From: Gemmatales bacterium
GTDB lineage: Bacteria > Planctomycetota > Planctomycetia > Gemmatales > HRBIN36
Assembly: GCA_025060195.1 (NCBI GenBank)
Contig: JANXCQ010000007.1
Location: 34,647-98,646, forward strand
DNA: 64,000 nt
Reading direction: 5' to 3'
In this document: in pieces, positions 1,186-25,519 of the stretch
How the letters are laid out: the number at the start of each line of letters is the position of its first letter
Position numbering within the stretch: the stretch's first letter is position 1
Notes under the pieces: generated by a model
The model's input: only the letters and a program-made list of their open reading frames with translations
Databases searched by the model: none
What the model was told of the DNA's origin: nothing
Translations under genes and position numbers: made by a program

Positions 1186-4100
1186 TCACTTCCCACCAAA
1201 GCCCCGATATGCCCCCTCTATGAATTTAAGCAGCATGTGCGCGTCGTGCATTTCTGGATATTCTTCGACCAAGCGACGAAGTATCTGTCGCGCCTGGCTA
1301 AAATAAGCTAATGCCTGACTTCTTTTGTTTCCCTTAGCTAAACATGACCCTATCTCACTGAGGGTCTCAGCTAAAGCGAGATGATAAACAGGTAAATCGG
1401 GCAACTCGTGAACCAGGGCTTGGCGGAGCCTTAGAGCTTGCTCGAAGTATTTTTGGGCCTCGCTGACCTTATTACGTTGCAATAGCAGGGCCCCATACAT
1501 GTGGTATTTGTCGGCTAGTTCCTCGTGGTATTTGGATACCTGGGAATTCTTCCCGGCTAACGCCTCATACGCTGTCAGGGCTTGGCGATATGCCGACTCA
1601 GCTTCGTTCACGCGACCTGTGGTTATTAACAGATGCCCCAAAATATATTGAGTGCGGGCTAATTCCTGAAGATATTCGGCGTTCTTAGGCTCCTCCGCCA
1701 ATAGGCTCTCTTGAATTGCCAATGCTTGCCGATAAGCCGACTCCGCTTCCCTAATGCGTTTCGTGCCTTGCAGCATAAGGCCGAAGTTGTAATAGGTGGC
1801 CGCGAGTTGGCGGCGATAAATGGAGGATTGGGGATACTCTGCTATGAGCCTTTCCCGGATTGCTAATGCTCGCCTATAGGCTAACTCAGCTTCTTCCGTT
1901 CTACCCGTGTCGTCCAGCAGATTACCTAAGTTAGTGTGTGTGGCAGCGAGCTCTTGGAGATACTGAGGCGTCCGAGGATATTCTCCAGCTAGCTTCTCAT
2001 ATATTTTCAAGGCCTTCTGATGAGCCGATTCCGCCTCCTCCAATCGCCCGGTGGATTTCAATAAGACGCCTAAGTCGTTTAGTATTGCGGCAAGTTGTTG
2101 GCGGTACTGAGGATTCTGGGGATGCTCCAAGCTGAGCTTTTCATATATTGCCAACGCCCGCTGATAAGCCGATTCCGCTTCCTTGTCTTGTCCAGTGTCT
2201 TGCAGCAAGTCGCCCAAACTACGCTGAATGACGGCGAATTCTTGGTAATAGAGTAGAACTTGGGGATAGTCGGCCGCGAGCTTTTCGTAAACTATCAGCG
2301 CCTGCACATAGGCAGCCCTCGCTTCGCTCATTCGTTCTGTATTCCTCAACAAATTCCCCAAATTATAGCGGGCGCGTGCAAGCTCTTGGCGGTAATAAGA
2401 CACCTGTGGGTGCTCGGCAGCAAGTTTTTCCAGGAGTACTAACGCCTGCCGATAAGCGGACTCAGCCTCCTGGATTCGTCCTGTGGCACTTAACAGAAGG
2501 CCTAGGTTTTGATGAGTTCGCGCGAGCTCTAGGCGATTTTCCGGCACCTGGGGAAGATCTGCAACTAGCTTTTCTTGGCTTGCCAGGGCTCGGCGATAGG
2601 CCAGCTCGGCCTCTTGCGTTCGCCCAGAAAGTTGCAGTAAGTTGCCTAAGTTGTTATGTGAAGTAGCAACTTCTTGCCGGTACAGGGCCACATTTGGATA
2701 TTCTTCGGCTAGCTTTTGATGAATGCTTAGGGCATGCCGAAACAATATCTCAGCTTCCTGCATTCGTCCCTTAGATTGTAACAAGACGCCCAGGTTGTTG
2801 CTCGCGATGCCGAGTGCATGCCGATATTCCGGCACCTGAGGACGCTCTTGAGCTAAAGTCTCGAGCACCGAAACTGCTCGCTGATATGCATGTTCACTAG
2901 GGTCGTGCTGACCCAAGATTTCATAAAGCCTGCCCAAAGAAAAATACGCACGGGCTAAGCGGTACTTCTCTTCATGGCTGGTTGCGGCACCTTGGGTGTA
3001 CTCCTTGTAGTAGGCGACCAAGGCTTGGAGTAATTGTTTTTCCTCCGCGGTGAGGTGGGGTTTGCGGCTGAGCTGGTCGAGAGCTTGATCGGAGGCGATC
3101 AGTTCGATGGCTTGACGGGCACGTTCGGCCGCGCTTTCCGCTTGCTCGCGACGTTCTTCCGCCAGCTTCCGGGCCTGCTCGGCTTGTTGGAAGCTGGTCT
3201 CGGCACGTTGGCGTTCGACTTCCTCGCGGCGGAGCGCTTCATTCAGTTGCTCGTTAGTCTGCTCGAGTTCGCGATTTTTCGTCCCCAGAACCGCCGCGAA
3301 ACCGGACAGCAACAGAGCAGCCACCAGCACCACGGCCCCGCCCGTAGTCATCAGCACGCGATGGCGTCGTGCCCAGCGCGCTAACCGTTCCCGCACCGAT
3401 TCCCGATACGCCGACACAGCTTCATTCGCGAGCCATCTCTCGACATCCCTAATCAAATCTTCGGCGGAGCGGTAACGCATATCGGGCGATTCGGCCATCG
3501 CCTTGGCGCAGATGGCCACGAGTGCAGGAGGCAGCCAGGGTTTGAGTTTGCCGGGAGGCGGCGCGGGTCGTCCTTCGGCGAAAGGCGGCTGGCCTGTCAG
3601 CAGGTGATATAACGTAGCGCCCAGCAGGAACACATCGGTACGTTCGTCGGCAGGTTGACCGGCGAGTTGTTCAGGAGCCATGTAGGCCTTCGTACCCAAC
3701 ACCGCCCCAGGTGCCGTCAGTGCGGGGTCATCCCCATCTTCGTCATTAGTAATCTGGGTAGTGGATTCGACCGAGCTGACCTGGCGAACGCGTCGGGCCA
3801 AGCCCCAGTCGAGAACGATCGTTTCGCCATAGGGACCAAGCAAGATATTATGCGGTTTTAAATCGCGGTGAATGACGCCACGACTATGCGCGTAGGCAAT
3901 GGTCCGGCACACCGCGAGAAACCGATTGAGCAGTTCGAGAAACCTCAACCGCACTCTGGGCCGCCCGAAGTCGCGCGCTCGGCGAACGCTGCGATGAAAC
4001 TCAGCAATCGCTTCGTCGTAACGCTGGCCTTGGAGGTAGCGCATGACATAGTACCGCGTGCGGTTCGCTTCGCCCCGACCTAACACGGGCACGATGCCTG

Positions 4101-4500
4101 GATGCTCGAGTTGCGCCGTGATAGCCGCTTCTTGCTCGAAGCGTGCTTGCTCAAAGGGATTGCGGGAGAACTTGATCGCTACTAGTCGCTGGAGGGCGAG
4201 GTCCTCGGCTAACCAGACTTCGCCCATGCCGCCCCGACCGATCTGCCGTATCATGCGGTAGCGAGTTTGTTCCACGATGTCGGTTGCCGGTGGCTGCGGT
4301 TCGTCGTTCGTCGCTTCCGAGCGGTCGTTGTACGCGGAACCGTCTCCAGGGGGTCGCAAGGTGCTTTCGTCGCTCAAGGAGCGATACTCTGGCTCCGCAG
4401 GCGAGGATGGCCCAGGGGATGCAGGTTGTGGAGTAAGCGGCTGAACCGACTGGGAACGCTGCGTGGGTTGCGACCCTTCGTGTGGCGCGGGCGCAGACAT
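1186..4500 (-). CDS. Membrane-spanning Ser/Thr protein kinase with a coiled coil and a long C-terminal TPR array.
   Basis: 1104-aa ORF. ATG 4500 has AAGGAGA about 8 nt upstream. Hanks motifs are present: VAIK, HRDLKPHNILL, DWGLAR, GTKAYMAPE. There is one TM segment (VLMTTGGAVVLVAALLLSGFAAVLG), an E/R/Q-rich coiled coil, then about 12 TPR-like units. Confidence 0.9.
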   Translation of the reverse strand: MSAPAPHEGSQPTQRSQSVQPLTPQPASPGPSSPAEPEYRSLSDESTLRPPGDGSAYNDRSEATNDEPQPPATDIVEQTRYRMIRQIGRGGMGEVWLAEDLALQRLVAIKFSRNPFEQARFEQEAAITAQLEHPGIVPVLGRGEANRTRYYVMRYLQGQRYDEAIAEFHRSVRRARDFGRPRVRLRFLELLNRFLAVCRTIAYAHSRGVIHRDLKPHNILLGPYGETIVLDWGLARRVRQVSSVESTTQITNDEDGDDPALTAPGAVLGTKAYMAPEQLAGQPADERTDVFLLGATLYHLLTGQPPFAEGRPAPPPGKLKPWLPPALVAICAKAMAESPDMRYRSAEDLIRDVERWLANEAVSAYRESVRERLARWARRHRVLMTTGGAVVLVAALLLSGFAAVLGTKNRELEQTNEQLNEALRREEVERQRAETSFQQAEQARKLAEERREQAESAAERARQAIELIASDQALDQLSRKPHLTAEEKQLLQALVAYYKEYTQGAATSHEEKYRLARAYFSLGRLYEILGQHDPSEHAYQRAVSVLETLAQERPQVPEYRHALGIASNNLGVLLQSKGRMQEAEILFRHALSIHQKLAEEYPNVALYRQEVATSHNNLGNLLQLSGRTQEAELAYRRALASQEKLVADLPQVPENRLELARTHQNLGLLLSATGRIQEAESAYRQALVLLEKLAAEHPQVSYYRQELARARYNLGNLLRNTERMSEARAAYVQALIVYEKLAADYPQVLLYYQEFAVIQRSLGDLLQDTGQDKEAESAYQRALAIYEKLSLEHPQNPQYRQQLAAILNDLGVLLKSTGRLEEAESAHQKALKIYEKLAGEYPRTPQYLQELAATHTNLGNLLDDTGRTEEAELAYRRALAIRERLIAEYPQSSIYRRQLAATYYNFGLMLQGTKRIREAESAYRQALAIQESLLAEEPKNAEYLQELARTQYILGHLLITTGRVNEAESAYRQALTAYEALAGKNSQVSKYHEELADKYHMYGALLLQRNKVSEAQKYFEQALRLRQALVHELPDLPVYHLALAETLSEIGSCLAKGNKRSQALAYFSQARQILRRLVEEYPEMHDAHMLLKFIEGAYRGFGGK
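1189..2945 (-). repeat. Tandem array of about 12 TPR-like units inside the kinase gene, with a period of roughly 48 aa / 144 bp by manual count.
   Basis: The unit EAESAYRQALAIxEKLxxExPxxPxYxxxLAxTxxNLGxLLxxTGR recurs head-to-tail. I counted 48 residues between successive EAES motifs in three units. Confidence 0.7.
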
Positions 4501-4514
4501 CGGGCGACTCTCCT

Positions 4515-5135
4515 TTATTTCAAGTCGTCCAAATCGAGGTAGCGACGGAGTTTCTCCTTGGCACTATGCCAATAGCGTTTCACGGTGCGTTCGCTGACCT
4601 GCAGGATGCGGGCGATTTCTTCCTGTGTCAGGCCGTGATACCAACGCAGATTGACGACCTCGCGTTCCTCCTCTTCCAAGACGCCGGGCTGGTCAATCAG
4701 TTCATGGAACCGTTGCCAGGCTTCCCAGCGTTCGGGTGAGGAGGAAGTGCTGGCTACGGGCTGAGGCCTTGAGCCAGCGGTGTCTTGGTCACGCTCGGCG
4801 ACGCTGTCCCAATGCGGCAAGGCAGGTCGGCGGAGTAATTCCAAAGCGGCCCAGCGAAGATTTTTCGCCGCCACCGCCAGGAAATGGCGTGCCGAATGGA
4901 AGTTGAGCCGTTGCTCCCGAAGCGTTTCTAAAAGACGGAGGCAGAGATTCTGCATGACGTCGGAGCTGCTAAACGCCGGGTCATTCCGCGTGCGGAACAT
5001 GTGGGCGGCTATCGCTTCAAACCGTTGCCTGACATAAGCGAACAGTGCGTTTTCCGCCTCGGTATCTCCTGCTTGCGCCTGAGCTAACATCCCCTCAACC
5101 TGACGCCAACTGGTGCTGGAATGCGCGTCGCTCAT
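4515..5135 (-). CDS. ECF-type RNA polymerase sigma factor of the kinase-associated type (ECF43 / Sigma70_ECF-like, by recall).
   Basis: 206-aa ORF with a region-4 HTH (VVNLRWYHGLTQEEIARILQVSERTVKRYWHSAKEKLRRYL). Stop TAA 4515-4517 lies 14 nt upstream of the kinase ATG, and the kinase RBS follows the stop directly. Confidence 0.85.
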   Translation of the reverse strand: MSDAHSSTSWRQVEGMLAQAQAGDTEAENALFAYVRQRFEAIAAHMFRTRNDPAFSSSDVMQNLCLRLLETLREQRLNFHSARHFLAVAAKNLRWAALELLRRPALPHWDSVAERDQDTAGSRPQPVASTSSSPERWEAWQRFHELIDQPGVLEEEEREVVNLRWYHGLTQEEIARILQVSERTVKRYWHSAKEKLRRYLDLDDLK

Positions 5136-5173
5136 GGTGCGTCCCCGTGCGTGCCTGTCAGTAAACCGTCGTT

Positions 5174-5201
5174 ATTATAACCGCACGCGGCAGGGTAGCA
5201 A
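5174..5201 (-). promoter_or_regulatory. Candidate sigma70-type promoter for the sigma-kinase operon.
   Basis: On the minus strand: TTGCTA (5201-5196), a 16-nt spacer, then a perfect TATAAT (5179-5174), about 39 nt upstream of ATG 5135. The -35 overlaps the GGTAGCAAT repeat. Confidence 0.3.
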
Positions 5202-5306
5202 TCGCGTCAAGAAATGTCGTAATTCCCGCGCGTTTCAGATTTGGCCGACTTTTTGTTATTGGGCTGAGGTAGCAATCGAGTCAGGCAATGTCCTTATTGC
5301 CGCGGG
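5194..5306 (+). repeat. Two imperfect 39-nt direct repeats with a 74-bp period.
   Basis: 5194-5232 reads ggtagcaatcgcgtcaagaaatgtcgtaattcccgcgcg. 5268-5306 reads ggtagcaatcgagtcaggcaatgtccttattgccgcggg. There are 7 mismatches in 39. The second copy contains the palindrome GGCAAT-N6-ATTGCC. Confidence 0.6.
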
Positions 5307-5465
5307 GTCATTGCCTTCTTGCAGGGCCAGCGTGTCTCCTACGTTTGCAGGTAAGTCTGGGATCAGCGCACCCGCTCGAAGGGACGCGAAATGTTATCTA
5401 AAGGCCAAATACTGTCGCTGGTACCAAGTGATGAATTAATAGTCGCGAACTAGCCGCTGCTCAGG

Positions 5466-6395
5466 CTACTTATTGTCCAGCTTAATATGCTTGGCGCGGT
5501 CGCGCACTAATGGATGCGGATCGTTCTGCAGTTTCTTCACCAATTCGGGCGTGCGAAAGAAAGGATACTTTATCAACACATGCACCGCATACCGTCGGAT
5601 GTACCAGGCCTTATCATTAACCAGCCGTTCCAGCTTGGTTCTAGCGAGCTCCACGTCGGCGTGTTGCCTGAAATTGCGGCGTATCCGCCAGGCTGTTGTC
5701 TCCAAGACATGCGCGGCCCAATCGAATTCGTCCGCATTCAATTGGCTTTTTGCTGTCACACCCTTGTGAAACCAGTGCCAAGCATCTTGCTTATAGTTTT
5801 CATACAAATACTCTACTAACCCATCGGGTATCTTATCCTGATACTCTGCGATAATGGTGGGATATGAATCCGCGGGTCGAGATTTTAGTCCGATGATGGA
5901 GTCCATGTTGTTTATCTGGTCATACATCTTGAGCAGCCGGTGCGCGATGGCTGCTTTAGATTCGACACTCTCCACATTAGGAAGTTCGCCACGTTCATTA
6001 GTTTCAAGATACTTAATCCACACGTGCCGACATATGCCCGACGTGTCCACAGTCAGCAGGCATGGTAGTATTCCCTCAAATACCATAGCTGCCACTATAT
6101 CTTTCTTGAATTCCTCCTCATAAGTCTCCACCATAGTCTCCGCCCATTTGCGCAAGTCTAATTCCATTTTTCCCTGAGCCTTCTCTTTCAGGAACTTGTC
6201 TATTTGCATCGGGTTACCAACTAAATGTCGAAGCATTACACACTCGCGATGTTGCCGAACGTGTTGACCTGCGAAAACCGGCCCTGGGTGCTCCAAAACT
6301 GTCGGCAGGAATAAACCGATGAGCACCGGCAGCCCGTAGAACAGACCAACGTTTCCAACAAAGGCTACTTGCCGCGGGAAATCGCTTCTAAGCAT
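5466..6395 (-). CDS. Hypothetical protein with an N-terminal TM segment and a C-terminal HEAT/armadillo-like repeat.
   Basis: ORF 5466-6401. GAGGAGGT directly abuts ATG 6401, so ATG 6395 (6-nt spacing) is the better start. The TM segment is GNVGLFYGLPVLIGLFLPTVL. The C-terminus reads DKAWYIRRYAVHVLIKYPFF...NDPHPLVRDRAKH. Two hand-counted 60-nt samples gave 40-45% GC. Confidence 0.6.
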   Translation of the reverse strand: MLRSDFPRQVAFVGNVGLFYGLPVLIGLFLPTVLEHPGPVFAGQHVRQHRECVMLRHLVGNPMQIDKFLKEKAQGKMELDLRKWAETMVETYEEEFKKDIVAAMVFEGILPCLLTVDTSGICRHVWIKYLETNERGELPNVESVESKAAIAHRLLKMYDQINNMDSIIGLKSRPADSYPTIIAEYQDKIPDGLVEYLYENYKQDAWHWFHKGVTAKSQLNADEFDWAAHVLETTAWRIRRNFRQHADVELARTKLERLVNDKAWYIRRYAVHVLIKYPFFRTPELVKKLQNDPHPLVRDRAKHIKLDNK

Positions 6396-6532
6396 GCTCA
6401 TACCTCCTCTATTTAGTGATGGAGAAAGAGGTGCATCTCTGTTTCACTACTTGTATTCCGTTCTTTTCATAAGCACTTGCTTTCGTTTCTGAATACCTGT
6501 GACTAGACTAAGTTAACTAAATAGAGCGCCTC

Positions 6533-7323
6533 CTAGCGCCTAGGCGTCCTGGCTAAGAAGGCCTGAAGTATTCCAACTTGCACATTGGGATTATCACCCA
6601 TAGAGGTGTGACTCAGGGTAGTCCAGGGATCGATAGGCGGGTTATTCACATCCCTGTCATGGTCAGCGCCCTGAACGGCATTACCACGTATAGTAGCATC
6701 GACAGTCTGATAATAATTGGCATGATATTGAGAATTTATAGGGCGCTCAGTAACTGGCATAGGAGGCACGTAGGTGAGCATGTTTCCCTGTAGAACGATG
6801 CGAGGCCGACTTCCGTGAACGATAGCGTCTATATAGGCCGTGAAAGGAACCGCGAAGGGCAGACGAAAGCCTTCGTCAGGAATTCGCCCAGCAGCGGCTT
6901 CGCTGAGACGATTCGCTAGGTTCAACGCAGCCCCGCCCCCCAGCTGAAGCCAAGCATAGCTAAGTAGGAGACATTGCGCAAGTTGACCGCGGCCCGCACT
7001 TCTTCATATGCTTGACCAGTCCCTAAAGTCTGTTCTTGGTGGCTTTGCTCTTGCTCCGCAAACATGTGCACATCAAATCCGTGAGTTTGATATAACTCTC
7101 TGCCGATTTCATAAATGCCCCAACCTCTGGCACGTATAGTTTCGAATTCGAATGTAGCCGGTGTTTGTGTAAAACCTCCAATAGCAACGATGACTGCTTG
7201 GAACCTATAAAAGGTAACGCGATCGCTGCTGACGACTCGATTGCCCAGGCGGGCTTCGAAGGTCAGCGTGGCGGTGAGCGGCTGGGCCTTGCCGCTTATC
7301 CACTCGTAAAGAGCCGGGGCCAT
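6533..7323 (-). pseudogene. Alpha/beta-fold hydrolase (esterase/lipase-like) split by a frameshift at a G6 tract. As written it appears as ORFs 6922-7323 and 6533-6925.
   Basis: ORF1 ends ...VSYLAMLGFSWGAGLR*. The ORF2 frame is already open upstream through the junction. One extra G in the run 6936-6941 gives ...LGFSWGGGAALNLANRLSEAAAG..., a textbook GxSxG nucleophile elbow. A late LSHTSMGDNPNVQVGILQAFL looks like the catalytic-His helix. ATG 7323 has GAGGAAAA upstream. Confidence 0.5.
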
Positions 7324-7365
7324 TACCGCTTTTCCTCGATGGATAACGCGTAACTTAGCCGTCTG

Positions 7366-7390
7366 ATTATTGCTACCTTAGCGCAATAAT
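7366..7390. promoter_or_regulatory. AT-rich inverted repeat (possible operator) about 45 nt upstream of the hydrolase start.
   Basis: ATTATTGC (7366-7373), N9, GCAATAAT (7383-7390). It overlaps ATTGCTACC (7369-7377), the reverse complement of the GGTAGCAAT motif at 5194 and 5268. Confidence 0.3.
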
Positions 7391-7543
7391 TTCAGTTTCA
7401 CGATCCCATTCATGCCGTTCGCCGCGTGGATCGTGGCCGAAACGCAATACAGACGGCGGACAACGAAATGTGTTTATGTCAGTGTAAATGAATCCCTTTC
7501 GCCGCGGATGGATCGCAGATAAGCGTGCGGCGGTAACTCAGTG

Positions 7544-7658
7544 GTGATGAGCGTCGCGCTCATGTGGGGAAGCGATTGCTCCGCGCGGAACGTTACATCC
7601 GCTCGAGTGGCTCCCCCGAGTCGGGTGTGATCAGCGTCGCGCTCGTGTGGGGAAGCGA
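7544..7658 (+). repeat. Pair of 32-bp direct repeats with an 83-bp period, each containing a short palindrome (REP-like).
   Basis: 7544-7575 reads gtgatgagcgtcgcgctcatgtggggaagcga. 7627-7658 reads gtgatcagcgtcgcgctcgtgtggggaagcga (2 mismatches). The core hairpin is GAGCG-TCG-CGCTC. Confidence 0.6.
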
Positions 7659-7683
7659 GCACCTGGAGCGAAACGCAAAGGCG

Positions 7684-9072
7684 TCAAATTTCCCAGCCTT
7701 TACGGTACTCGCGACGGAGGTAGCGATTGGCCTCGGAATTATTGGTGATGCGGAAGTTTTCGCCGTCCCATTGCAACTTGGCGCCTGCCTTGATCGCAAC
7801 GTTACCAAGCAGGATGAATTCGGTGAGCGGGCCGGCGTAATCAAAGTTGGACATGGCGATTTCGGGCTTGTTTTCGCGGATAGCCATGGCGAGTTCGGCT
7901 TTCATACCGGTGTCGCCGCCGTCTTTGTTACGTGGCAACGTTTGCGGCACCTTCTTGGCCTCCGCTTCCAGTTCGCGCGGAATCAGTTGCCATTCGCCGC
8001 CGTAATCGCTGGGCGAGTAGAGTAAGCCTTTCTCGCCGACCATGATGCAGCCGCTGCTGGCGATTTGCTTGACGCCACTATCCAGGATGCGCTGCAACAG
8101 TTCTTTAGGCGGACGCAGCAACTGTCCGTCGCGGCGGCCTTCGTACCAGTGGAAAACAACAGGCGGCATGCCCTCGCGAGCGGGGAATTCCCAGACGACA
8201 TGGGCCCAGCTGGGGTACGTCTCAGGATTGACGTCGCCCGCTTGGGCTTCGACAGAGGTCGGATAATGGAGTTTCAGGGCCATATAAGGCAGGTTGGCAG
8301 TGTGGCAGCCCATGTCGCCGAGTGCGCCCGTGCCGAAATCCCACCAACCACGCCAACCGAATGGGTGATACACGGAGCTGTAGGGTCGTTCGGGTGCTGG
8401 GCCAAGAAAGAGATCCCACTTGACGTATTCTGGGACGGGTTCGGGCTTGGGACGCTGCATAATTTGGGGCGCCTGCCGCCAGACAGGACGATTTGTCCAG
8501 ACATGGACTTCTTTCACAGGCCCAATGACCCCCGCGCGAATTACTTCCACGCCGCGACGCAACACGGGCGACGCCGTGCCCTGGTTGCCCATTTGCGTGC
8601 ACACTTTGAACTTGCGGGCCGTTTCGCGGAGCAGCCGGGCCTCGTAAACGTTATGGGTGAGCGGTTTCTGCACGTAGGCATGTTTGCCCATCCGCATGGC
8701 CAGGACAGCAGCGACGGCATGGGTGTGGTCGGGCGTGCTGATAACCACAGCGTCAATTTTGTTACCCATTTCGTCCAACATCTTGCGGAAATCGTGGTAC
8801 TTCCGTGCTTCGGGGAAACGCTCGGCCATTTTGTTCAAAGGTCGGTCGTCAATGTCGCAGATGGCCACGATGTTGCCGAACCGTGCAGCTTGTTCGGTAT
8901 CACTTTGACCTTTGCCCCCGACGCCGATGCACGCAAAGTTGATTTTGTCGAGAGCGGATTTGGGTTCGGCCTGTGCCAAAAGGTCGCGTTCTGTGCCGAC
9001 CCAAAAACCTACGCTCACCCCGAACAGCGCCGACTGTTTCAGGAAATCCCGCCGACTGGTTCCCTTGCGCAT
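7684..9072 (-). CDS. Gfo/Idh/MocA-family NAD(P)-dependent oxidoreductase with a Tat signal peptide.
   Basis: ATG 9072 has AGGAG 6 nt upstream (ORF track starts at 9174). Twin-arginine motif TSRRDFLKQSALFGVSVG. Rossmann motif INFACIGVGGKGQSD. This is a common planctomycete family. Confidence 0.85.
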   Translation of the reverse strand: MRKGTSRRDFLKQSALFGVSVGFWVGTERDLLAQAEPKSALDKINFACIGVGGKGQSDTEQAARFGNIVAICDIDDRPLNKMAERFPEARKYHDFRKMLDEMGNKIDAVVISTPDHTHAVAAVLAMRMGKHAYVQKPLTHNVYEARLLRETARKFKVCTQMGNQGTASPVLRRGVEVIRAGVIGPVKEVHVWTNRPVWRQAPQIMQRPKPEPVPEYVKWDLFLGPAPERPYSSVYHPFGWRGWWDFGTGALGDMGCHTANLPYMALKLHYPTSVEAQAGDVNPETYPSWAHVVWEFPAREGMPPVVFHWYEGRRDGQLLRPPKELLQRILDSGVKQIASSGCIMVGEKGLLYSPSDYGGEWQLIPRELEAEAKKVPQTLPRNKDGGDTGMKAELAMAIRENKPEIAMSNFDYAGPLTEFILLGNVAIKAGAKLQWDGENFRITNNSEANRYLRREYRKGWEI

Positions 9073-9241: not shown

Positions 9242-10009
9242 CTAGGGCGAAGAGGCGGGTTTCGCGGGGTGGGGCGGTGCGTTGCGCTGCGGTAAATGAT
9301 ACAAACGAAAACCGACGTCCTTGCGGTCATGAACTTGGCCGCCCTCGTCCGTGCGGTTCATCCCTACGGAATAAATCACGATACCTTCGGGCGTGCTTTT
9401 CAGTAGCATGGCACTACCCGTGAATGGGTCTATGGGAATCTCGGATAAAAATGTTGGCACTAATTCTGACCAGTCGGCGGGCAGTCGGCCGTGGCGCACT
9501 CGATATTCCTCGGCAGCTAGAGCGGCCTGAGCGGCCAATAATTCGCCTCGCAGGTTAGCGCACCCCGACCAAAGCTGGGGGTAATCCAGCTGCATAGGAC
9601 CGCCCCGACAAAGCACTGCTGCCCAGAAAGGCTCAAGTGCCTCTGGAGGTAGTTTGAGCGTCTTTTGATTCTCAGGGAAAGCCTGGTCAGAAAAAGGTAA
9701 ACGGGCAAACGCCTCCACTTGGTTCAGGTAGCGGAGATTGGCCGCATGAAACTTAAGATAGTAGGGATACGCAAATCGTTGCTTCGTTGCGTGGGGCAAG
9801 TCCTCCAAAACCCACTTCTTCCATGTTTCACTCCACCCAGCGGGCCTACTTGGGGAAGAAACACTATGAACACTTGGTCGGACAAATTGTCCCCAAGTTA
9901 ATCTCCCGCTCAATAAATTGTCATAAGCAACCTGGAAAGCGGCTCGTTCTGCGCGCACCAGAGCGAGAAACGGGTTCATGTTCGCCCGCTGTTCTAGGAT
10001 CTGGGCCAA
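9242..10009 (-). CDS. Hypothetical protein. It is probably the C-terminal half of the gene upstream, and its C-terminus carries a pseudopilin-like motif.
   Basis: It is in the same frame as 10025-10792, separated by TAG plus 5 codons. The track start at 10009 is TTG and the first ATG is at 9979. The C-terminus reads AAQAALAAEEYRVRHGRLPADWSELVP..IPIDPFTG...IVIYSVGMNRTDEGG. Confidence 0.5.
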   Translation of the reverse strand: MAQILEQRANMNPFLALVRAERAAFQVAYDNLLSGRLTWGQFVRPSVHSVSSPSRPAGWSETWKKWVLEDLPHATKQRFAYPYYLKFHAANLRYLNQVEAFARLPFSDQAFPENQKTLKLPPEALEPFWAAVLCRGGPMQLDYPQLWSGCANLRGELLAAQAALAAEEYRVRHGRLPADWSELVPTFLSEIPIDPFTGSAMLLKSTPEGIVIYSVGMNRTDEGGQVHDRKDVGFRLYHLPQRNAPPHPAKPASSP

Positions 10010-10024: not shown

Positions 10025-10792
10025 CTAGGACAACTCCCCTAATGCCAGATGCCGCTCGATTTGCCTCACCGCTCGTCCTGCCAGTTGCAGGCCAGCAATT
10101 TGTCCCAGTGCATACAACTCATCGTCGAAGCAGGTTGCCACCACCCACTGGGCCAGAAGCATCGCCTCTGCTTCCCGGAAACGTTTTTCTGAACAAAAGC
10201 CTTCGTGAAGCAACTGTAAGGCGTTCATAGTTCCCCGTGGGATGTCGTACATTCCTAAGGACACCATATAGGGGTCTGGCTGCATCGGACTTAGCGGGAT
10301 GCGAGCGCGACGATACTGGAGAAGTTGAAACGCGCATTGCACTAGAATTGGGTCGTCGGCCTGCCAATGGTTGATCGACTCTTTTAAATGCGGCGGCAAA
10401 GAACGATTGGGATGCTTCAACGCCTCTTCGTGGTACCAATCCCAGAAGCTGCCCGGTCGAGAGCGTGAGAATTCGCTGGCCCGAGGATGAGTGCGGAAGC
10501 GTCGCGACAGTTCGACGACAATCGGCCAGGCGTCCTCACTGGGGTCGAGCGGTTCCCGCTGGGCCACTAAGTCGTCCCAGCGCCAATTGGGATATAGTTT
10601 GTCCGTTTCTTCCAACGCACGGGCTACTTCCGCTTTACCCTGGTGCCAAACGTATATAAGCCAGGTTCCAGGTAACCCGATAACCAGACCCAACAAGCTG
10701 AGGCTGAGCACTACTACACGCCAAAACCAACGGCCTGGCTTCTTTTCCGCGGCGGAGATGTCACTTGTCGAGGCCGAATATTCGTGGTGCAT
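10025..10792 (-). CDS. Hypothetical N-terminally membrane-anchored protein. It is probably the N-terminal half of a gene interrupted by TAG 10025-10027.
   Basis: ATG 10792. The TM segment is WFWRVVVLSLSLLGLVIGLPGTWLIYVW. The ORF ends ...RHLALGELS*, and the reading frame continues as ETRTRLAQILEQ. Confidence 0.5.
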   Translation of the reverse strand: MHHEYSASTSDISAAEKKPGRWFWRVVVLSLSLLGLVIGLPGTWLIYVWHQGKAEVARALEETDKLYPNWRWDDLVAQREPLDPSEDAWPIVVELSRRFRTHPRASEFSRSRPGSFWDWYHEEALKHPNRSLPPHLKESINHWQADDPILVQCAFQLLQYRRARIPLSPMQPDPYMVSLGMYDIPRGTMNALQLLHEGFCSEKRFREAEAMLLAQWVVATCFDDELYALGQIAGLQLAGRAVRQIERHLALGELS

Positions 10793-19709: not shown

Positions 19710-20447
19710 ATGACAACGCGCACGAAAGCACGCATCCGCTTTCGTAAGGCAGGCGACCTGCGCTTCTTTAGCCATCATGACTTAGCTCGGATGTTCGAGC
19801 GGATGCTTCGCCGGGCCGCTTTGCCGGTTCGCATGTCTGAGGGATTTCATCCCATGCCCCGCATAGCTTTTGCCAGTGCCTTGGGCCTGGGGATTATCGG
19901 TTGGGAGGAAGTGGTGGAAATCGAGTTTACCGAGCCGCTCACCCCCAGTGAAATTGAGCAGCGACTTCGTGAGCAGGCTCATCCGGACTTAGTTATTCTT
20001 TCGGTAGAATTAATTGAGGCGAAACGAAAGGCGCAACCGATTCGCAGTGTATATCGCTTTCGCCTACCCGAAGCTCTGTTACCGTTGGTACAAGAGCGAT
20101 TGGCGCAACTGCACCAACAGGAACAGTGGTGGGTAGAACGGGTGCGCGTCTTGGAAGGGGGAGCGCAACGACCAGATTCGAGCTCAGGCGATATTGAAGT
20201 CCCTCTCGTAGCTCCCATCCCGCGCCGTCAGGTGCGTTCCATCGACATCCGTAGCTTCGTCGAACGCCTCTGGATAGAAGACGGTGCCCTTTACTTTTCG
20301 TGCGCCATAACGTCTAAAGGCACGGCTCGGCCCGAAGAGATCTTGCGTTTACTTGATCTGGAGCATTTGCTGGATGAAGGCTACGTACTTGAACGCGTGC
20401 GCTTACAACTTGCCGACGAACCGATGTCGGAGGTCTCCTCCTCATGA
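19710..20447 (+). CDS. DUF2344 / TIGR03936-like 'radical-SAM-linked' protein.
   Basis: RIRFRKAGDLRFFSHHDLARMFERMLRRAALPVRMSEGFHPMPRIAFASALGLG matches the family signature as I recall it. The stop overlaps the next ATG (ATGA at 20444-20447). Confidence 0.8.
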   Translation: MTTRTKARIRFRKAGDLRFFSHHDLARMFERMLRRAALPVRMSEGFHPMPRIAFASALGLGIIGWEEVVEIEFTEPLTPSEIEQRLREQAHPDLVILSVELIEAKRKAQPIRSVYRFRLPEALLPLVQERLAQLHQQEQWWVERVRVLEGGAQRPDSSSGDIEVPLVAPIPRRQVRSIDIRSFVERLWIEDGALYFSCAITSKGTARPEEILRLLDLEHLLDEGYVLERVRLQLADEPMSEVSSS

Positions 20448-22378
20448 AAAAGGAAATGCTTATCAACGTCTGCGAACCTGAGGAATGTCGCATTGCCATC
20501 GTCGAAGATGGCGTCTTGGAAGAACTCTATATTGAACGCACTTCGCAGGAAAGCTATATCGGCAACATTTATAAAGGTCGCATTGTGAACATCGAACCGA
20601 GTATTCAGGCCGCCTTCGTGGATTTTGGAATCGGACGCAACGGCTTCCTCCACGTCAGCGATGTGGCCCCCCAATATTATCGCCACATCCTCGAAGGGTT
20701 GCCTGCCCCAACCGACCCCATCTTCGAATTGCCCGATATGCCGGTTTACGATATCCCCGAAGAGGATGACGAGGATCATGCGGAGGAAGCTCCCAGTGGC
20801 TATGAGATGGCTTCGCCCGCATGTTCCGGGCCTCAAGCAGGGCACTCGGCCAAGTTAGAAACACGGGGCCGCGGCCGTCCATTCGGTGGATTTGCTGAAC
20901 CTCAAGCTTCGCTTCCTTCGGAATCGCTGCTAACATCTCCGTCCCCCGGCGCTGAACCAGTGTGCGCTGTCGTCGATGATGTTGGCGGTTCCGGTCAAGC
21001 AGTTCCGGCAATTCCCGTGGCATCCGCCTCTACAGCTTCTCCCAACGGTTCCGAAGGCTCTGTAATCGAAGCATGCCCGCGCCCCCAGCAGGCCCGAATG
21101 CGTCCACGCCTGCGCGGCGTGCCCCAACGGCAACCGAAGCCACCGATTCAGGACATCTTTCGCCGCGGACAGGAAGTCCTAGTTCAGGTCATCAAGGAAG
21201 GCCTGGGCTCGAAAGGGCCGACACTTTCTACTTATATCAGCATTCCGGGCCGATATTTGGTCCTAATGCCCGGACTAGGTCGTATTGGCGTGTCCCGCAA
21301 GATTACCGATGAAGAACAGCGTCGGCGGCTACGCCGCATTCTCCAAGAGCTACACCTTCCGAAAGGCTTAGGCTTTATTATTCGTACTGCCGGTTTAGAT
21401 CGCACGAAGAAAGAACTCCAGCGCGACTTAGCTTATCTTTCCCGCGTTTGGAAAGTGGTGATCCGCAGAGTGCGAAAGTGTCAAGCGCCTGCGCTGGTTT
21501 ATCAGGAAAGCGACATGATTATTCGCACCATCCGAGATGTGTTTGATAGTCAAATTCAAAGAATTTATATAGATGAACCGAAGGCTTATGAACATGCGCG
21601 GGAATTTTTGCAGATTGTTATGCCCCGTTACGCCGACCGTTTGCAACTATATTCCGATAGTGAACCCTTGTTTCACCGCTATGGCATTGAAAAAGAGATT
21701 GCGCGCGTGCATAGCCGACATGTCCAACTACCTGGCGGTGGCTCCCTAGTCATTGACACCACCGAAGCCTTAGTGGCTGTGGATGTTAATAGCGGTAACT
21801 TTCGTGCCGATAATGACGCAGAACAGACGGCTTATCTGGTGAACTTAGCCGCGGCCAAGGAAATTGCGCGGCAACTAAGGTTGCGGGATCTGGGCGGTGT
21901 GATAATCATTGACTTCATAGACATGCGCGACGAACAGCATAAACGGGATGTCGAGCGGACGTTGCGGGAAGCTGTCCAACGCGATCGCGCTCGAACTAAG
22001 ATTTTGCGCATGTCTCCTTTCTGCATCGTGGAAATGACGCGGCAACGGATTCGGCCCTCGCTCAAACACAGCGTCTTCGAGGATTGCCCGTGGTGTCAAG
22101 GTACCGGCCAGGTAAAGACCCCCGAGAGCGTGAGCCTGGAAATTATCCGCCTGCTGAAACTCGCCGTTCATCGCGCCAGGATTCGCCGCATCCATGTGAA
22201 CGTTTCGGAACCGGTGGCTCATTATCTGCTGAATCGCCAACGCAAGAACATCACTGCCTTAGAAGAACAACATCAAGTGCACATCGTCATCCGGGTCGTT
22301 CCCAATCAACCCCCTGATTTTCTCCAAATTCAGTGCTTAGACCAGAATGGCGCGGAAATCCGAGTAATACCGTCTTAG
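20444..22378 (+). CDS. Ribonuclease E/G family endoribonuclease with a large insertion in the S1 domain.
   Basis: The S1 N-terminal half is GNIYKGRIVNIEPSIQAAFVDFGIGRNGFLHVSDV. The S1 C-terminal half is IFRRGQEVLVQVIKEGLGSKGPTLS. The catalytic core includes VAVDVNSG and GGVIIIDFIDM, and a Zn-link CPWCQGTG is present. Confidence 0.9.
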   Translation: MKKEMLINVCEPEECRIAIVEDGVLEELYIERTSQESYIGNIYKGRIVNIEPSIQAAFVDFGIGRNGFLHVSDVAPQYYRHILEGLPAPTDPIFELPDMPVYDIPEEDDEDHAEEAPSGYEMASPACSGPQAGHSAKLETRGRGRPFGGFAEPQASLPSESLLTSPSPGAEPVCAVVDDVGGSGQAVPAIPVASASTASPNGSEGSVIEACPRPQQARMRPRLRGVPQRQPKPPIQDIFRRGQEVLVQVIKEGLGSKGPTLSTYISIPGRYLVLMPGLGRIGVSRKITDEEQRRRLRRILQELHLPKGLGFIIRTAGLDRTKKELQRDLAYLSRVWKVVIRRVRKCQAPALVYQESDMIIRTIRDVFDSQIQRIYIDEPKAYEHAREFLQIVMPRYADRLQLYSDSEPLFHRYGIEKEIARVHSRHVQLPGGGSLVIDTTEALVAVDVNSGNFRADNDAEQTAYLVNLAAAKEIARQLRLRDLGGVIIIDFIDMRDEQHKRDVERTLREAVQRDRARTKILRMSPFCIVEMTRQRIRPSLKHSVFEDCPWCQGTGQVKTPESVSLEIIRLLKLAVHRARIRRIHVNVSEPVAHYLLNRQRKNITALEEQHQVHIVIRVVPNQPPDFLQIQCLDQNGAEIRVIPS

Positions 22379-22584
22379 TTTGTTCGTATAAATATGTGCT
22401 TAGAACCCTGACTTACTCGATGTCTAGTCCCGATCAATGAACCATCTTATGTATTTGGTCCCCTAACTTATGTGAGTAAAAAATATGCGTTGGGCCACTG
22501 CATCAGGAGGGTGGGCTTATAGAAAGTGTGCCTGGCATATCAAAAAGATGCCCTGCATGATTCAGGAGTCATGGAGGACAAGGC

Positions 22585-23577
22585 ATGAGATGCCTAGTAA
22601 CTGGGGCGGCGGGGTTTATTGGTTCGCACTTATGTGAGCGCTTATTAGAAGATGGACATGATGTTATCGGTATAGATGCCCTGGTCCCTTACTATGATCC
22701 GCAAATTAAGCAAGCCAACTTGACACGACTCTTACAACACCAGCGCTTTCGATTTTACCGATGGGATCTACGCTATCAAGACCTGCGGGAAGTGGTGAGG
22801 TGGGCAGACTATATATTTCACCTAGCGGCTATGCCGGGTTTGATCCAAGCTTGGCAGGATTTCGAGGGCTACTGGACGTGCAACGTACTGGCGACCCATC
22901 GTTTATTAGAGGCCGTTCAGCATCATGCTTCAAGCTTGCGCCGATTTCTCTATATCAGCACCTCGTCCGTTTATGGACGATATGCGTCGGGAGATGAGTC
23001 GTTACCATTAAAACCAATCTCCCCCTATGGGGTGACTAAGTTGGCAGGGGAACAATTATGCCGAGCGCATGCTGAGGTCTATGGCTTGCCCCTCGTCGTG
23101 CTGCGGTATTTTTCGGTTTACGGTCCCCGGCAGCGGCCGGACATGGCTTATCATCGGTTTATTCGCGCATTATTGCTGGACGAACCTATAACCGTTTACG
23201 GAGATGGGTTACAAATCCGCGGCAACACTTATATTAGCGACTGCATCGAAGCAACTATCCGCACCATGGACGCACCCCCTGGAGAAACTTATAACATCGG
23301 AGGCGGCGAGACCGCTACGGTCTGGGAAATTATCCGGAAATTGGAGGGGATCAGCGGACGCAAAGCGCGGATCCGTCAGGAAGCATCGCGACCAGGGGAT
23401 CAGCGGTATACCTTTGCCGACACCACGAAACTCCGCCTACATTTCGATTGGCGACCACGGGTGGGCTTGGATGAAGGGCTGCGACAACAATGGGCTTGGC
23501 AGGAGCGGCAGTTGACGAAGGCCAACAAATCGTCCGCTACCAGGGAGTCAGCTTATGAACATTTCGGCCAAAATTGA
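22585..23577 (+). CDS. NAD-dependent sugar-nucleotide epimerase/dehydratase (extended SDR).
   Basis: VTGAAGFIGSHL Rossmann motif and the catalytic SPYGVTKLAGE (YxxxK). Confidence 0.85.
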   Translation: MRCLVTGAAGFIGSHLCERLLEDGHDVIGIDALVPYYDPQIKQANLTRLLQHQRFRFYRWDLRYQDLREVVRWADYIFHLAAMPGLIQAWQDFEGYWTCNVLATHRLLEAVQHHASSLRRFLYISTSSVYGRYASGDESLPLKPISPYGVTKLAGEQLCRAHAEVYGLPLVVLRYFSVYGPRQRPDMAYHRFIRALLLDEPITVYGDGLQIRGNTYISDCIEATIRTMDAPPGETYNIGGGETATVWEIIRKLEGISGRKARIRQEASRPGDQRYTFADTTKLRLHFDWRPRVGLDEGLRQQWAWQERQLTKANKSSATRESAYEHFGQN

Positions 23578-24034
23578 AGAATACCTCCAAGGTCCACAAC
23601 TTCTACGGCGGGCGGTTGCGGGAATGACTCAAGAGCAACTCGTGGCCCGACCCGTGCCTGGACGATGGAGCACGCTGGAAGTGGTTTGTCATTTGGCAGA
23701 CTTCGAGCCGATCTTCGCCGATCGGATCAAGCGGGCTCTTGCAGAAGAACGACCTACTATCTTGGGCGCAAATCAAGACCTTTTCGTCCAGCGTTTGGCC
23801 TATCATGAGCGCGATTTGGAGGAAGAACTAAGTTTAATTGAACTCACTCGCAAGCAATTGGCCCGAATATTGCGAACCCTGCAGCCGGAGGACTTTCAAC
23901 GAGTAGCAGTGCACAATCAAGCTGGCCCCCGCACTGTAGAACAATTGCTGGATACGGCCATTCGACATATCCCCCACCATGTGCAATTCATCAGGGAAAA
24001 ACGCCGCGCTTTAGGCTTGCCTGATTTTATGTAG
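23555..24034 (+). CDS. DinB-family (DinB_2) metal-binding four-helix-bundle protein.
   Basis: WSTLEVVCHLADFE ... IRHIPHHVQFI histidine pattern. The start overlaps the epimerase 3' end by 23 nt. Confidence 0.75.
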   Translation: MNISAKIEEYLQGPQLLRRAVAGMTQEQLVARPVPGRWSTLEVVCHLADFEPIFADRIKRALAEERPTILGANQDLFVQRLAYHERDLEEELSLIELTRKQLARILRTLQPEDFQRVAVHNQAGPRTVEQLLDTAIRHIPHHVQFIREKRRALGLPDFM

Positions 24035-24144
24035 CTGGGGCAAACGCGAGGTTCGGCCATCTGAAGTCCGTCAGAAGTTCAGCGAGAGATATGCCTCAGT
24101 TCAGAGCGAAGTAACAACAGGTTTTCGGCCATTTCGATTTAGAT

Positions 24145-24771
24145 TTGCTCCTCTCGGATGCGGCTCATAAAATTCATTTGCTGCTGAAAGAAAAAAATCT
24201 TGTAAAGGGTGCAAAAGCTGTGGAAAGCGAGGCTGCTCAGTTACCGCAACTCCTCGTTGAGGTGGAACAGCAATTCGTAGAACTATGGGGGGATATGAGT
24301 TCGTGGTGGGGTGTAAGTCGAACCATGGCCGAGATTCACGGCTTGCTTTATATCACGGGCGAGGCTCTGAGTGCTGAAGAAATTCAAAGGCGTTTAGGAA
24401 TATCACGTGGCAATGTGAGCATGAATATACGCACGTTAGTAGAATGGGGGTTAGTACGGCGGGTACGGAAACGGGGGGATCGCCGTGAATATTTTCAGTC
24501 GGTAACGGATGTTTGGGAAATGTTTACCGTGCTGGCAGCGCAACGGAAGCGGCGGGAGATTGACCCCGTAGTACGGACTTTAGAAGAATGTCGCGAGCGT
24601 CTGAGTGCTGAATCCATTGGGGAGGCGGCGAGTGACCCGAAAGCGCGCCAACGTCTGGAACGGATCGAGAATCTGCTGACTTTCTTACGAATGCTGCAGC
24701 AGCTGGCAGAGAAATTTATCACGAGCCAACGCGGCTTACAGGCAGCTGTGAAACGCCTAGCAGAATTGTGA
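24145..24771 (+). CDS. GbsR/MarR-like winged-helix transcriptional regulator.
   Basis: AEIHGLLYITGEALSAEEIQRRLGISRGNVSMNIRTLVEWGLVRRVRKRGDRREYF. The start is uncertain: TTG 24145, or GTG 24220. Confidence 0.7.
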   Translation: MLLSDAAHKIHLLLKEKNLVKGAKAVESEAAQLPQLLVEVEQQFVELWGDMSSWWGVSRTMAEIHGLLYITGEALSAEEIQRRLGISRGNVSMNIRTLVEWGLVRRVRKRGDRREYFQSVTDVWEMFTVLAAQRKRREIDPVVRTLEECRERLSAESIGEAASDPKARQRLERIENLLTFLRMLQQLAEKFITSQRGLQAAVKRLAEL

Positions 24772-25049
24772 GGCTAACACGCCCCAATACGAGGGTAAAA
24801 TACCGCCATTTCGCCTCAGCAGCTGTGGGCTAAGCGGGGAGTAAACCCAAAAAAAGGCCGAAAAATCAGAAATTTTTTTATTTTTCCAGTTGAAAATCGA
24901 GCAAATTTGATTACTGTTTCGATCAACATTCAGTGCCAATTCGCCGTGCGCGTGGCACGGTGGAGTCACCACATTAGGAGCGGGAGTAGTGTGGTGGCTT
25001 TTGGCGGTATTATTCCTAACACTTCCCGCGTCGGTAAGTGAGGTGCCTC

Positions 25050-25367
25050 ATGGCCAAAGCAGCAACGACTGGACGGATGAGTAAATCGGAAATTGCCTCG
25101 TATTTGGCCGAAAAAGTTGGCATCACTAAGAAGCAAGCGGCGCAGGTTATGCAAGAGCTAGTGCAGCTGATTTACAAGCAGGCGAAGAATGGCTTTGTCA
25201 TTCCAGGTTTAGGAAAAATTGTGCTATCCGAGCGGCCAGCGCGGAAAATGATTATGCGTTTCGGTCCCAAACAAGGGCAGGAGATCCTTATTCCTAAAAA
25301 GAAAGTGCTCAAATTCCGTTTCTTAAAGGCGGCCAAAGATGCCATTCTCGGCCCTGCCAAGAAGTGA
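25050..25367 (+). CDS. hup: HU/IHF-family nucleoid-associated DNA-binding protein.
   Basis: SKSEIASYLAEKVGITKKQAAQVMQELVQLI...GLGKIVLSERPARK...KVLKFRFLKAAKDAI. ATG 25050 follows GTGAGGTG. An AT-rich promoter region lies upstream at 24830-24960. Confidence 0.85.
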   Translation: MAKAATTGRMSKSEIASYLAEKVGITKKQAAQVMQELVQLIYKQAKNGFVIPGLGKIVLSERPARKMIMRFGPKQGQEILIPKKKVLKFRFLKAAKDAILGPAKK

Positions 25368-25519
25368 AACCATTTTCATGGCGAAGGTAAAAGCTTACAA
25401 TGGCATGTACTAACTGAGACTTTTGTTGCCTCAAGTTTTTAGCTGATTTAGGCTAATAAAATTGTCCGCGGAACGCGGTTTCGGGACAAAGATCCTTGAT
25501 TTCTACGAATGGGAGAAAA

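Follow-up and report, generated by a model that had tools for sequence, protein, structure and literature searches.

Polymorphic toxins, such as the CdiA-CT/CdiI systems and the Rhs-CT/RhsI arrays, are large exported proteins with variable N-termini and an enzymatic domain at the extreme C-terminus. A junction motif precedes this domain and a small partner gene follows immediately downstream, as do arrays of 5'-truncated copies without export signals, each with an intact partner, and short recombination segments conserved at the DNA level (PMC3482391). We analysed a two-gene islet (positions 5136-7683) in a 64,000-nt stretch of a Gemmatales genome (hereafter the window; all coordinates are window positions), in which a broken gene for a lipase-like hydrolase (H, gene or domain) is followed by a gene for a 311-aa HEAT-like partner (P). 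The H-P module shared each of the above traits, and on balance the islet is probably a degenerate module of the 'orphan' kind, from a polymorphic toxin/immunity-type system occurring mainly in Planctomycetota and related phyla. It differed from the described systems in that H proteins lacked Rhs/YD and filamentous-haemagglutinin repeats as well as PAAR, LXG and VENN/PxxxxDPxGL elements, in that the putative toxin tip was always one diverging family instead of unrelated toxin folds, and in that a second recombination segment lay at the 3' end of the partner gene.

The Tle1-4/Tli pairs of type VI secretion systems (T6SS) also consist of a GxSxG alpha/beta-hydrolase followed by an exported periplasmic partner, and they likewise occur as several divergent pairs per genome and with orphan immunity genes. 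In contrast to these, no VgrG, Hcp or PAAR genes were present near approximately 50 H loci, and the long H forms carried Sec-type signals and adhesin-like repeats. No Pfam family matched over H, hence none of DUF2235, DUF3274, PGAP1 or the other Tle families. No T6SS genes were found among the flanks of the approximately 50 loci nor in L001-L005 (relatives' loci or contigs are numbered in this way), the rest of the window not having been screened for them. Tli proteins are not known to be HEAT-repeat proteins.

Alpha/beta-hydrolase toxin tips (Tox-ABhydrolase-1/2/3) have been predicted to attack lipids, and planctomycetes and verrucomicrobia are on record as carrying Imm-HEAT immunity proteins (Zhang et al., 2012; PMC3482391). 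The concepts of a hydrolase tip and of a HEAT immunity protein are the same as in the H-P module. In that catalogue, however, the partners of the ABhydrolase toxins are SUKH, Imm66 and Imm69, and those of Imm-HEAT are Tox-REase-7 and Ntox34 (PMC3482391); pairing of H with a HEAT protein is not listed there, and a literature search found no description of it. The two halves of the combination have been catalogued separately. H may itself be Tox-ABhydrolase-2 or -3.

A further comparison is provided by Lif, the foldase of Pseudomonas and Burkholderia lipases. In LipA-Lif, as in the H-P module, the gene after that for the lipase encodes an all-helical protein, exported or anchored, which embraces the lipase. 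Unlike Lif, P had no similarity to Lipase_chap, persisted without a functional H and formed arrays.

A dead hydrolase gene beside an intact partner gene

The hydrolase gene of the window is a pseudogene, both 5'-truncated and frameshifted. Its frame was broken at a six-G run directly 3' of the serine codon of the GFSWG elbow (the nucleophile codon, 6943-6945), and adding one G, which undoes a -1 frameshift, fused the two remaining open reading frames (ORFs; Table 1) into a single ORF of 263 aa. The first 40 codons of the upstream piece corresponded to the DNA-conserved 5' end of the cassette, and the downstream piece supplied the conserved Asp (FTAYIDAI, codon 6827-6829) and the conserved His (HTSMGD, codon 6608-6610). 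Four intact relatives of 305-382 aa could be aligned with 91-98% of the joined protein, at identities of 42-46%; a fifth match was a 146-aa fragment, and all five came from Gemmatales metagenome-assembled genomes (MAGs). Intact relatives had approximately 56-130 extra N-terminal residues, and the window copy lacked an export signal and at least approximately 56 N-terminal residues of the domain. Repair of the frameshift would not restore a native protein, because the copy is a 5'-truncated remnant, devoid of an export signal, of what in large polymorphic surface or secreted proteins is the C-terminal domain. The frameshifted alpha/beta hydrolase described in the initial annotation was therefore correct as to fold class and frameshift, but not as a stand-alone esterase with one repairable shift. 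Single-sequence Pfam and PDB searches with both pieces and with the repaired protein gave nothing usable. A possible decayed 5' remnant of H with an in-frame TAA was indicated at 7324-7407, where tblastn alignments extended upstream of the ATG. This remnant is weak, since over-extension by tblastn was its sole support and six-frame searches of both spacers with hidden Markov models (HMMs) detected no significant H or P remnant.

The same lesion was present in a relative. L004, a MAG contig sharing 97.4% nucleotide identity with window positions 7471-5442 (53 differences over approximately 2030 positions), had an identical six-G run, as read directly from its sequence, which argues that the frameshift is not a random assembly error. 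A second MAG contig, L006, shared the split into 133- and 130-aa ORFs and appears to be the same sequence as L004. Among 93 intact homologs, G runs at the GxSxG motif were only 2-5 long.

The partner gene, by contrast with the decaying H, is intact. Its translation probably starts at the second ATG (6395), because of the position of a GGAGG sequence. HEAT matches of the window protein were below threshold (E 0.026-0.069). At the family level, HEAT_2 was matched by 11 of 45 members (best 1.1e-6), and the family profile matched alphaRep (5e-6), ARM designs (1.5e-5) and the PP2A-A HEAT scaffold in the PDB. A signal-peptide-like N-terminus was found in 44 of the 45 members, some of which had a lipobox-like Cys. 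P is thus predicted to be an exported HEAT-repeat protein, and the transmembrane-plus-HEAT-like description of the initial annotation was borne out, the hydrophobic N-terminus being evident and the HEAT repeats becoming clear at the family level after profile searches. In the window, P probably acts as the inhibitor of, or immunity protein to, its cognate H.

Between the window and L004, P had accumulated 14 synonymous and 13 nonsynonymous differences (omega 0.25), and the C-terminal piece of H 1 synonymous and 5 nonsynonymous differences. The window P was therefore under purifying selection while H decayed, on small counts and effectively one comparison genome.

The H domain family and its pairing with P

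When 1.84 billion representative proteins were searched exhaustively with a profile, 609 H clusters were obtained at E<=1e-3, 149 of them at E<=1e-30; clusters were counted at 50% identity and 609 is a lower bound. Most belonged to Planctomycetota and relatives. This result overturned the impression of a tiny family given by a word-indexed protein search, which had returned only 5 H and 7 P relatives, three of the latter lying beside H homologs according to their locus tags. For the window's own P protein, an exact look-up gave no contig on record. No Pfam or NCBIfam model covered the H domain, and neither the H nor the P family was named in NCBIfam, PADLOC or other libraries.

H-bearing proteins were 130-2024 aa long, and the domain reached the C-terminus in 149 of 152 of them (median of 0 residues beyond). 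Their N-terminal parts were highly diverse and made up of extracellular domains, at least 25 Pfam families being represented; TSP3_bac, Calx-beta, Big_9, cadherin, FG-GAP, RCC1, beta-helix and PKD were among them. For example, the C-terminal half of a 694-aa Big_9/cadherin protein in L001 (Gemmatales) was an H domain 44-57% identical to stand-alone copies. A junction motif (TAYRPQTE…PGxGIRxNGDDDD…GENDLIEV) preceded H in 45-65 of 93 long proteins, and several stand-alone H ORFs started at this motif or a few residues from it; together with the beta-sandwich and the hydrolase, it formed a conserved module of approximately 300-340 aa. Export signals were absent from 15 of 16 stand-alone H proteins; among 76 long forms, 28 had a Sec-type signal and 9 the planctomycete LExR N-terminal motif.

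A first AlphaFold model, based on a 5-sequence alignment, was poor (predicted local distance difference test, pLDDT, 64) and was replaced by a model from 30 sequences (pLDDT 90.5; predicted template modelling score, pTM, 0.86), which comprised an N-terminal beta-sandwich and an alpha/beta core. The conserved Ser was placed between a strand (178-184) and a helix (186-202), giving a strand-Ser-helix arrangement at GFSWGGG. Past the Ser, at the ends of successive core strands, came the Asp, which follows the next strand of the core, and the His, which precedes the C-terminal helix. The glycines and Ser of the GxSxG elbow (GFSWGGG or GYSHGGG) were invariant in alignments of 66 and of 30 members; with up to 66 members compared, the Asp (FTAYIDAI) was invariant and the His (HxTIDD) invariant or nearly so. 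This Ser-Asp-His series was tentatively assigned as the candidate catalytic triad, based on conservation, chain order and model topology. The top Foldseek matches in the PDB were mostly esterases and lipases, with probabilities up to 1.00; among them were a sialic-acid esterase (E 1e-4), the Streptomyces lipase 5h6b (probability 1.00) and the Bacillus LipA 3d2b (target TM 0.62). Minimal lipases (B. subtilis LipA 1t4m/3d2b and Streptomyces 5h6b) were among the best matches to the catalytic half of H, with probability 1.00 and target TM values of 0.50-0.62, and had the same Ser-Asp-His order. They differed in sharing only 14-15% identity with H, which adds the N-terminal beta-sandwich and the junction motif and forms the C-terminal module of multidomain proteins. 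H is thus modelled as a minimal, lipase-like alpha/beta hydrolase; it is a very divergent member, since Foldseek E-values were only 1e-4 to 1e-2 and the matches of sequence profiles to solved hydrolases, although consistent around the nucleophile elbow, remained below significance.

Eighty-five genome loci were fetched and searched with the P-family HMM; 84 H domains had room downstream. A P homolog lay directly downstream of 53 of these, at a median gap of 12 nt, and this pairing extended over Planctomycetota (Gemmatales, Pirellulales and Phycisphaerae), Kiritimatiellia, Lentisphaerae, Binatia and others. Arrays were found in L019, L004/L006, L048, L053 and L083, and among the loci there were also cases of two or three tandem P genes or of truncated H copies downstream. 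In L019 (Kiritimatiellae), a full-length gene of 1066 aa with its P was followed by a frameshifted stand-alone H with P and then by a truncated H with P, of which the third H kept only the last 120 profile positions. L082 contained three tandem P genes, and L004/L006 a dead H, a P, an intact H and a second P. L005 had H in three pieces beside an intact P, so that the decay of H next to a preserved P was seen three times: in the lineage of the window, in L005 and in L019. The effector/immunity idea raised in the initial annotation thereby gained comparative support, from the pairing across phyla, the orphan arrays and the retention of P under purifying selection next to a decaying H.

Two other gene arrangements were observed at H-related loci. 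In L008, L010, L016, L035 and L081, an H not followed by a HEAT gene was followed by small (90-130 aa), very hydrophobic ORFs just downstream, which may constitute an alternative, membrane-embedded partner family. In two loci of a Gemmatales relative (L001, 10967-13889; L002, 3126-5991), Big_9/cadherin proteins of 711-736 aa ended in a different C-terminal region of approximately 450 aa, one of which had a weak Peptidase_M78-like match, and downstream of each lay a gene of 219-225 aa without annotation. These pairs may represent a second toxin/immunity type on the same N-terminal scaffold.

Recombination, mobility and the weighing of explanations

Third codon positions were compared among six Gemmatales modules, which are paralogs. 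Identity was 0.59-0.66 for codons 1-40 of H and 0.50-0.60 for codons 271-311 of P, against 0.25-0.33 (saturation) elsewhere in H and P, even where the protein was conserved. Because high third-position identity was confined to the 5' end of H and the 3' end of P, the outer ends of the module must be homogenised at the DNA level. A recombination event was directly visible at the second of these ends. Between the 311-aa gene and the sigma gene, L004/L006 carried a second, intact pair (323-aa H and 317-aa P) that the window lacked. Compared with this tandem array, the window P followed copy A at 43 of 45 informative sites from 5628 to 5505, and copy B at 5 of 5 from 5499 to the stop codon; the first base after the stop (5465) was also of copy B, and downstream of P the window matched the spacer beyond the relative's second P. 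As the informative sites switch from copy A to copy B, a single crossover in the 3' segment of P relates the one-pair and two-pair arrangements, and the last approximately 11-24 codons of P, below the crossover zone, derive from a different paralog. The crossover offers a clean natural example of cassette gain or loss.

In another observation on the same alignment, window positions 6669-7411 (the 5' part of the pseudogene) showed 0 differences from L004 in 743 nt, compared with approximately 3% in the adjacent P gene. This mosaic divergence suggests recent conversion or recombination inside the module.

The location of the pair varied among relatives. In L005, another Gemmatales genome, it was found at a different site, beside genes that lie at 33.4-38.0 kb in the window. 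Orthologs of the sigma and kinase genes (three proteins at four loci, 52-61% identity) had ribH or a release-factor gene upstream and no pair, and the oxidoreductase orthologs (85-87% identity) were flanked on either side by unrelated genes. No H, P or sigma gene was detected near 80 loci with oxidoreductase homologs, i.e., the 85-87% orthologs and 78 further ones. Sigma and oxidoreductase genes were adjacent in no relative sampled, with synteny lost on both sides beyond the 97% relative, so the comparison provided no clean empty site. Module flanks were heterogeneous, with 115 families among 121 neighbours at approximately 50 loci. The pair is thus no core block, in line with the initial annotation, and these comparisons support its description as an accessory, movable two-gene unit. 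The origin proposed there, horizontally acquired cargo, was not sustained: the close homologs of H and P (42-57% identity) were all from Gemmatales, and the direct evidence concerned cassette gain or loss by recombination within a genome. A search of plasmid sequences gave no match to the module, and the window contained no other H or P homolog.

In the full system, the first of the two genes encodes a protein for export, whose N-terminus varies and is adhesin-like (cadherin/Big_9, TSP3, Calx-beta and others) and whose C-terminus is the H module, and the second, approximately 12 nt downstream, a HEAT-repeat P with a signal peptide, which most likely binds and blocks its cognate hydrolase in the periplasm. 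In the mechanism we propose, the lipase-like tip would damage a component of the target-cell envelope, most plausibly a lipid or another ester-linked molecule, whereas the producer and its kin would be protected by the periplasmic HEAT solenoid blocking the matching tip. The data show the anatomy of the module, its fold class, the conserved pairing, the arrays, the contrast in selection and the recombination junction; lipolytic or esterolytic toxicity, the inhibition by P and the route of delivery are inferred. Homologous recombination between two DNA-conserved ends, the 5' part of H and the final approximately 130 nt of P, would multiply modules or remove them. This would exchange or delete whole cassettes of toxin core and immunity core and leave behind H copies that are truncated and silent, next to functional P genes. 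In the window, where H is dead, P would presumably have been retained as protection against the same type of toxin from kin or neighbours, and the crossover at its 3' end would account for the absence of the intact second pair present in the 97% relative. Read in this way, the whole islet is explained: the 'frameshifted esterase' is a dead cassette, the 311-aa gene its surviving partner and the left spacer partly a recombination scar, while the right spacer may hold a gene remnant, for which the evidence is weak.

Several observations weigh against this reading. No P was detectable downstream of 31 of the 84 H domains, and H domains with and without P formed largely separate sub-clades. Canonical toxin-trafficking domains (Rhs, PAAR, LXG, TPS and VENN, or those of T5SS, T6SS, T7SS and TcdB) were absent from the 66 full-length members, no recurrent secretion-system gene was present among the 121 neighbours at approximately 50 loci, and the N-terminal domains would equally suit ordinary extracellular enzymes or adhesins. 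The structural matches of H had modest E-values and its profile matches were not significant. The selection contrast was drawn from small counts and, as L004 and L006 appear to be the same sequence, from effectively one comparison genome; frameshifts in other MAG loci could in some cases be assembly errors.

The best of the alternatives, though an unlikely one, is that H is an esterase or lipase of the ordinary secreted or surface kind, P its private, Lif-like folding or export chaperone, and the window copy a decaying duplicate. The gene order, in which a helical exported partner follows the lipase after a 12-nt gap, resembles that of lipA-lif, the N-terminal domains are typical of extracellular enzymes and adhesins, toxin-delivery genes are absent nearby, and one third of H domains manage without P. 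A chaperone, however, does not readily explain the survival of an intact P, under purifying selection, next to a dead H, nor why P genes form tandem arrays and why each truncated H copy keeps its P. The stand-alone H copies, moreover, lack export signals, so that a periplasmic foldase would never meet them. No P member (0 of 45 at E<=0.01) matched the Pfam lipase-chaperone family (Lipase_chap, PF03280), and the nearest structural relatives of H are minimal LipA-type lipases, which are not known to need a foldase. PhlA/PhlB provides a comparison case for an inhibitor silencing a secreted enzyme in its producer. If H likewise served as a secreted lipase or esterase in feeding or in interaction with a host, and P silenced it in the producer's own periplasm, no competition between bacteria would be involved. 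This explanation, to which we give little weight, draws on the same evidence for periplasmic inhibition, namely an exported P encoded downstream of H, and agrees with the lack of an evident contact-dependent delivery apparatus. An inhibitor without a client should nevertheless decay, yet at least three lineages have kept P next to H copies that are dead or truncated. The homogenised cassette ends and the presence of several divergent H-P pairs in one genome are, moreover, features typical of conflict systems.

Import of the pair from an unrelated donor of lower GC content, as a recent foreign island, is very unlikely. The islet is 4.7 GC points under the window mean, modules averaged 1.5-1.7 points under their flanks (35 loci) and the module sits at a synteny break. 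Against import stand the restriction of close homologs of both proteins to Gemmatales, core genes of equally low GC at 21.5-25.5 kb, the lack of an integrase, transposase, tRNA or plasmid match, and the fact that the sole event seen directly was recombination between resident paralogs. Homopolymers are classic sites of sequencing errors and of slipped-strand switching, and the lesion lies in one; the six-G run could accordingly be an error or a slippage-prone on/off switch of the hydrolase (phase variation). We consider this extremely unlikely, since L004 has the identical run and L006 the same split ORFs amid 53 nearby differences from the window, since the frame-restored protein would still lack the first approximately 56 domain residues and an export signal, and since the C-terminal H piece shows relaxed constraint.

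Under the toxin/immunity reading, the H-P module is a testable candidate in Planctomycetota and relatives, whose means of competition are largely uncharacterised. It represents a large family beyond Pfam, NCBIfam and PADLOC for which a fold model, candidate catalytic residues, a junction motif and an exported partner are now at hand. A wider proposal, which is tentative and rather doubtful, is an unnamed, phylum-spanning antagonism system centred on Planctomycetota, Verrucomicrobiota and relatives, in which Sec-exported, adhesin-decorated proteins would deliver a lipase-like tip without a known injection machine, periplasmic HEAT proteins would give type-specific immunity, and cassettes would be swapped or deleted through two homogenised ends. 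If true, this would be a way for bacteria to compete with one another in a group that has no characterised route of the kind.

Layout, composition and neighbours of the islet

On the minus strand, the order of genes was a Gfo/Idh/MocA oxidoreductase (9174-7684), a 360-nt spacer, the two split ORFs, the 311-aa ORF, a 330-nt spacer, an extracytoplasmic function (ECF) sigma factor (5135-4515) and a Ser/Thr kinase with TPR repeats (4500-1186). Features of the islet are listed in Table 1.

Table 1. Features of the islet, in window positions.
Feature	Position	Strand	Description
Right spacer	7324..7683	-	360 nt, from oxidoreductase stop to pseudo-H ATG; possible H remnant at 7324-7407
Pseudo-H, piece 1	6922..7323	-	133-aa ORF; end of beta-sandwich and first half of hydrolase core, to GFSWG elbow
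Six-G run, frameshift site	6936..6941	-	Seven G restores the frame (…GFSWGGGAALNLA…)
Pseudo-H, piece 2	6533..6925	-	130-aa ORF; rest of hydrolase core
H-P intergenic region	6402..6532	-	GGAGG ribosome-binding site 7 nt upstream of ATG 6395; weak hairpin 6540-6525
P gene	5466..6401	-	Intact, 309-311 aa; hydrophobic N-terminal signal/anchor and alpha-solenoid (HEAT-like) body
Crossover zone	5500..5537	-	In conserved 3' segment of P; upstream corresponds to relative's first P, downstream to second P
Left spacer	5136..5465	-	330 nt; sequence 3' of lost second pair and region upstream of ECF sigma gene

The GC content of the islet was 51.1%, compared with 55.8% for the window, and 2.6% of windows of the same size were equally low; the lowest 1-kb stretch of the whole window (5751-6750, 46.9%) fell in the region of the 311-aa gene. 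The dip is real, as confirmed by a sliding-window scan, but modest. The four 60-nt hand counts of the initial annotation were reproduced exactly (0.45, 0.40, 0.517 and 0.583), whereas its use of low GC as a mark of foreign origin proved weak. A second patch of approximately 50% GC (21500-25500) contains core genes, namely RNase E/G (20444-22378), an NAD-dependent epimerase (22585-23577), a DinB-family protein and a MarR regulator, and GC alone is for this reason not diagnostic. The reported absence of integrase, transposase and tRNA genes was corroborated by scans of ORFs, tRNAs and Rfam families: no integrase or transposase ORF was present within the islet, no tRNA across the whole window and no Rfam match in 4400-8000. 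The PADLOC search was likewise negative.

The spacers, at 330 and 360 nt, were among the 4 longest of 54 crude intergenic gaps (median 57.5 nt). They are unusually long, as first described, but 'full of repeats' was an overstatement, each having one two-copy direct repeat and one short inverted repeat; direct repeats of this kind were not seen in shuffled sequence, and the repeat content was modest. In the right spacer, two copies of a 49-nt direct repeat (80% identity; 7544-7592 and 7627-7675) lay just downstream of the oxidoreductase stop. Each contained a small GAGCG…CGCTC hairpin, and the repeat occurred nowhere else in the window and had no Rfam match. In the left spacer, a 37-nt direct repeat (…TGAC(G/T)CGATTGCTACC…; 84% identity; 5194-5230 and 5268-5304) lay upstream of the ECF sigma gene, one copy overlapping a promoter-like TTGCTA-16-TATAAT sequence at 5201-5174; a scan for promoters and terminators gave nothing above chance. 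A third copy seems to be present in L004 (4100-4400), and the repeat may be a regulatory site of the sigma/kinase operon.

Upstream of the oxidoreductase gene, two adjacent ORFs of 255 aa (9242-10009 and 10025-10792) had no Pfam match. They were considered as a second paired module or as mutual paralogs, which was rejected; they had no similarity to each other. They were absent beside the 85-87% oxidoreductase orthologs, and the variable region may therefore extend past the islet. On an 8.9-kb Gemmatales contig (L003), a GmrSD_N (type IV restriction-like) gene (736-2472) was situated approximately 4 kb upstream of an H-P pair, which hints that such pairs can sit among other defence or conflict genes. 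Finally, the C-terminal two thirds (1186-3100) of the 1104-aa Ser/Thr kinase formed a long run of TPR-type repeats, in which tblastx matches at offsets of 144 nt suggest a repeat unit of 48 residues.

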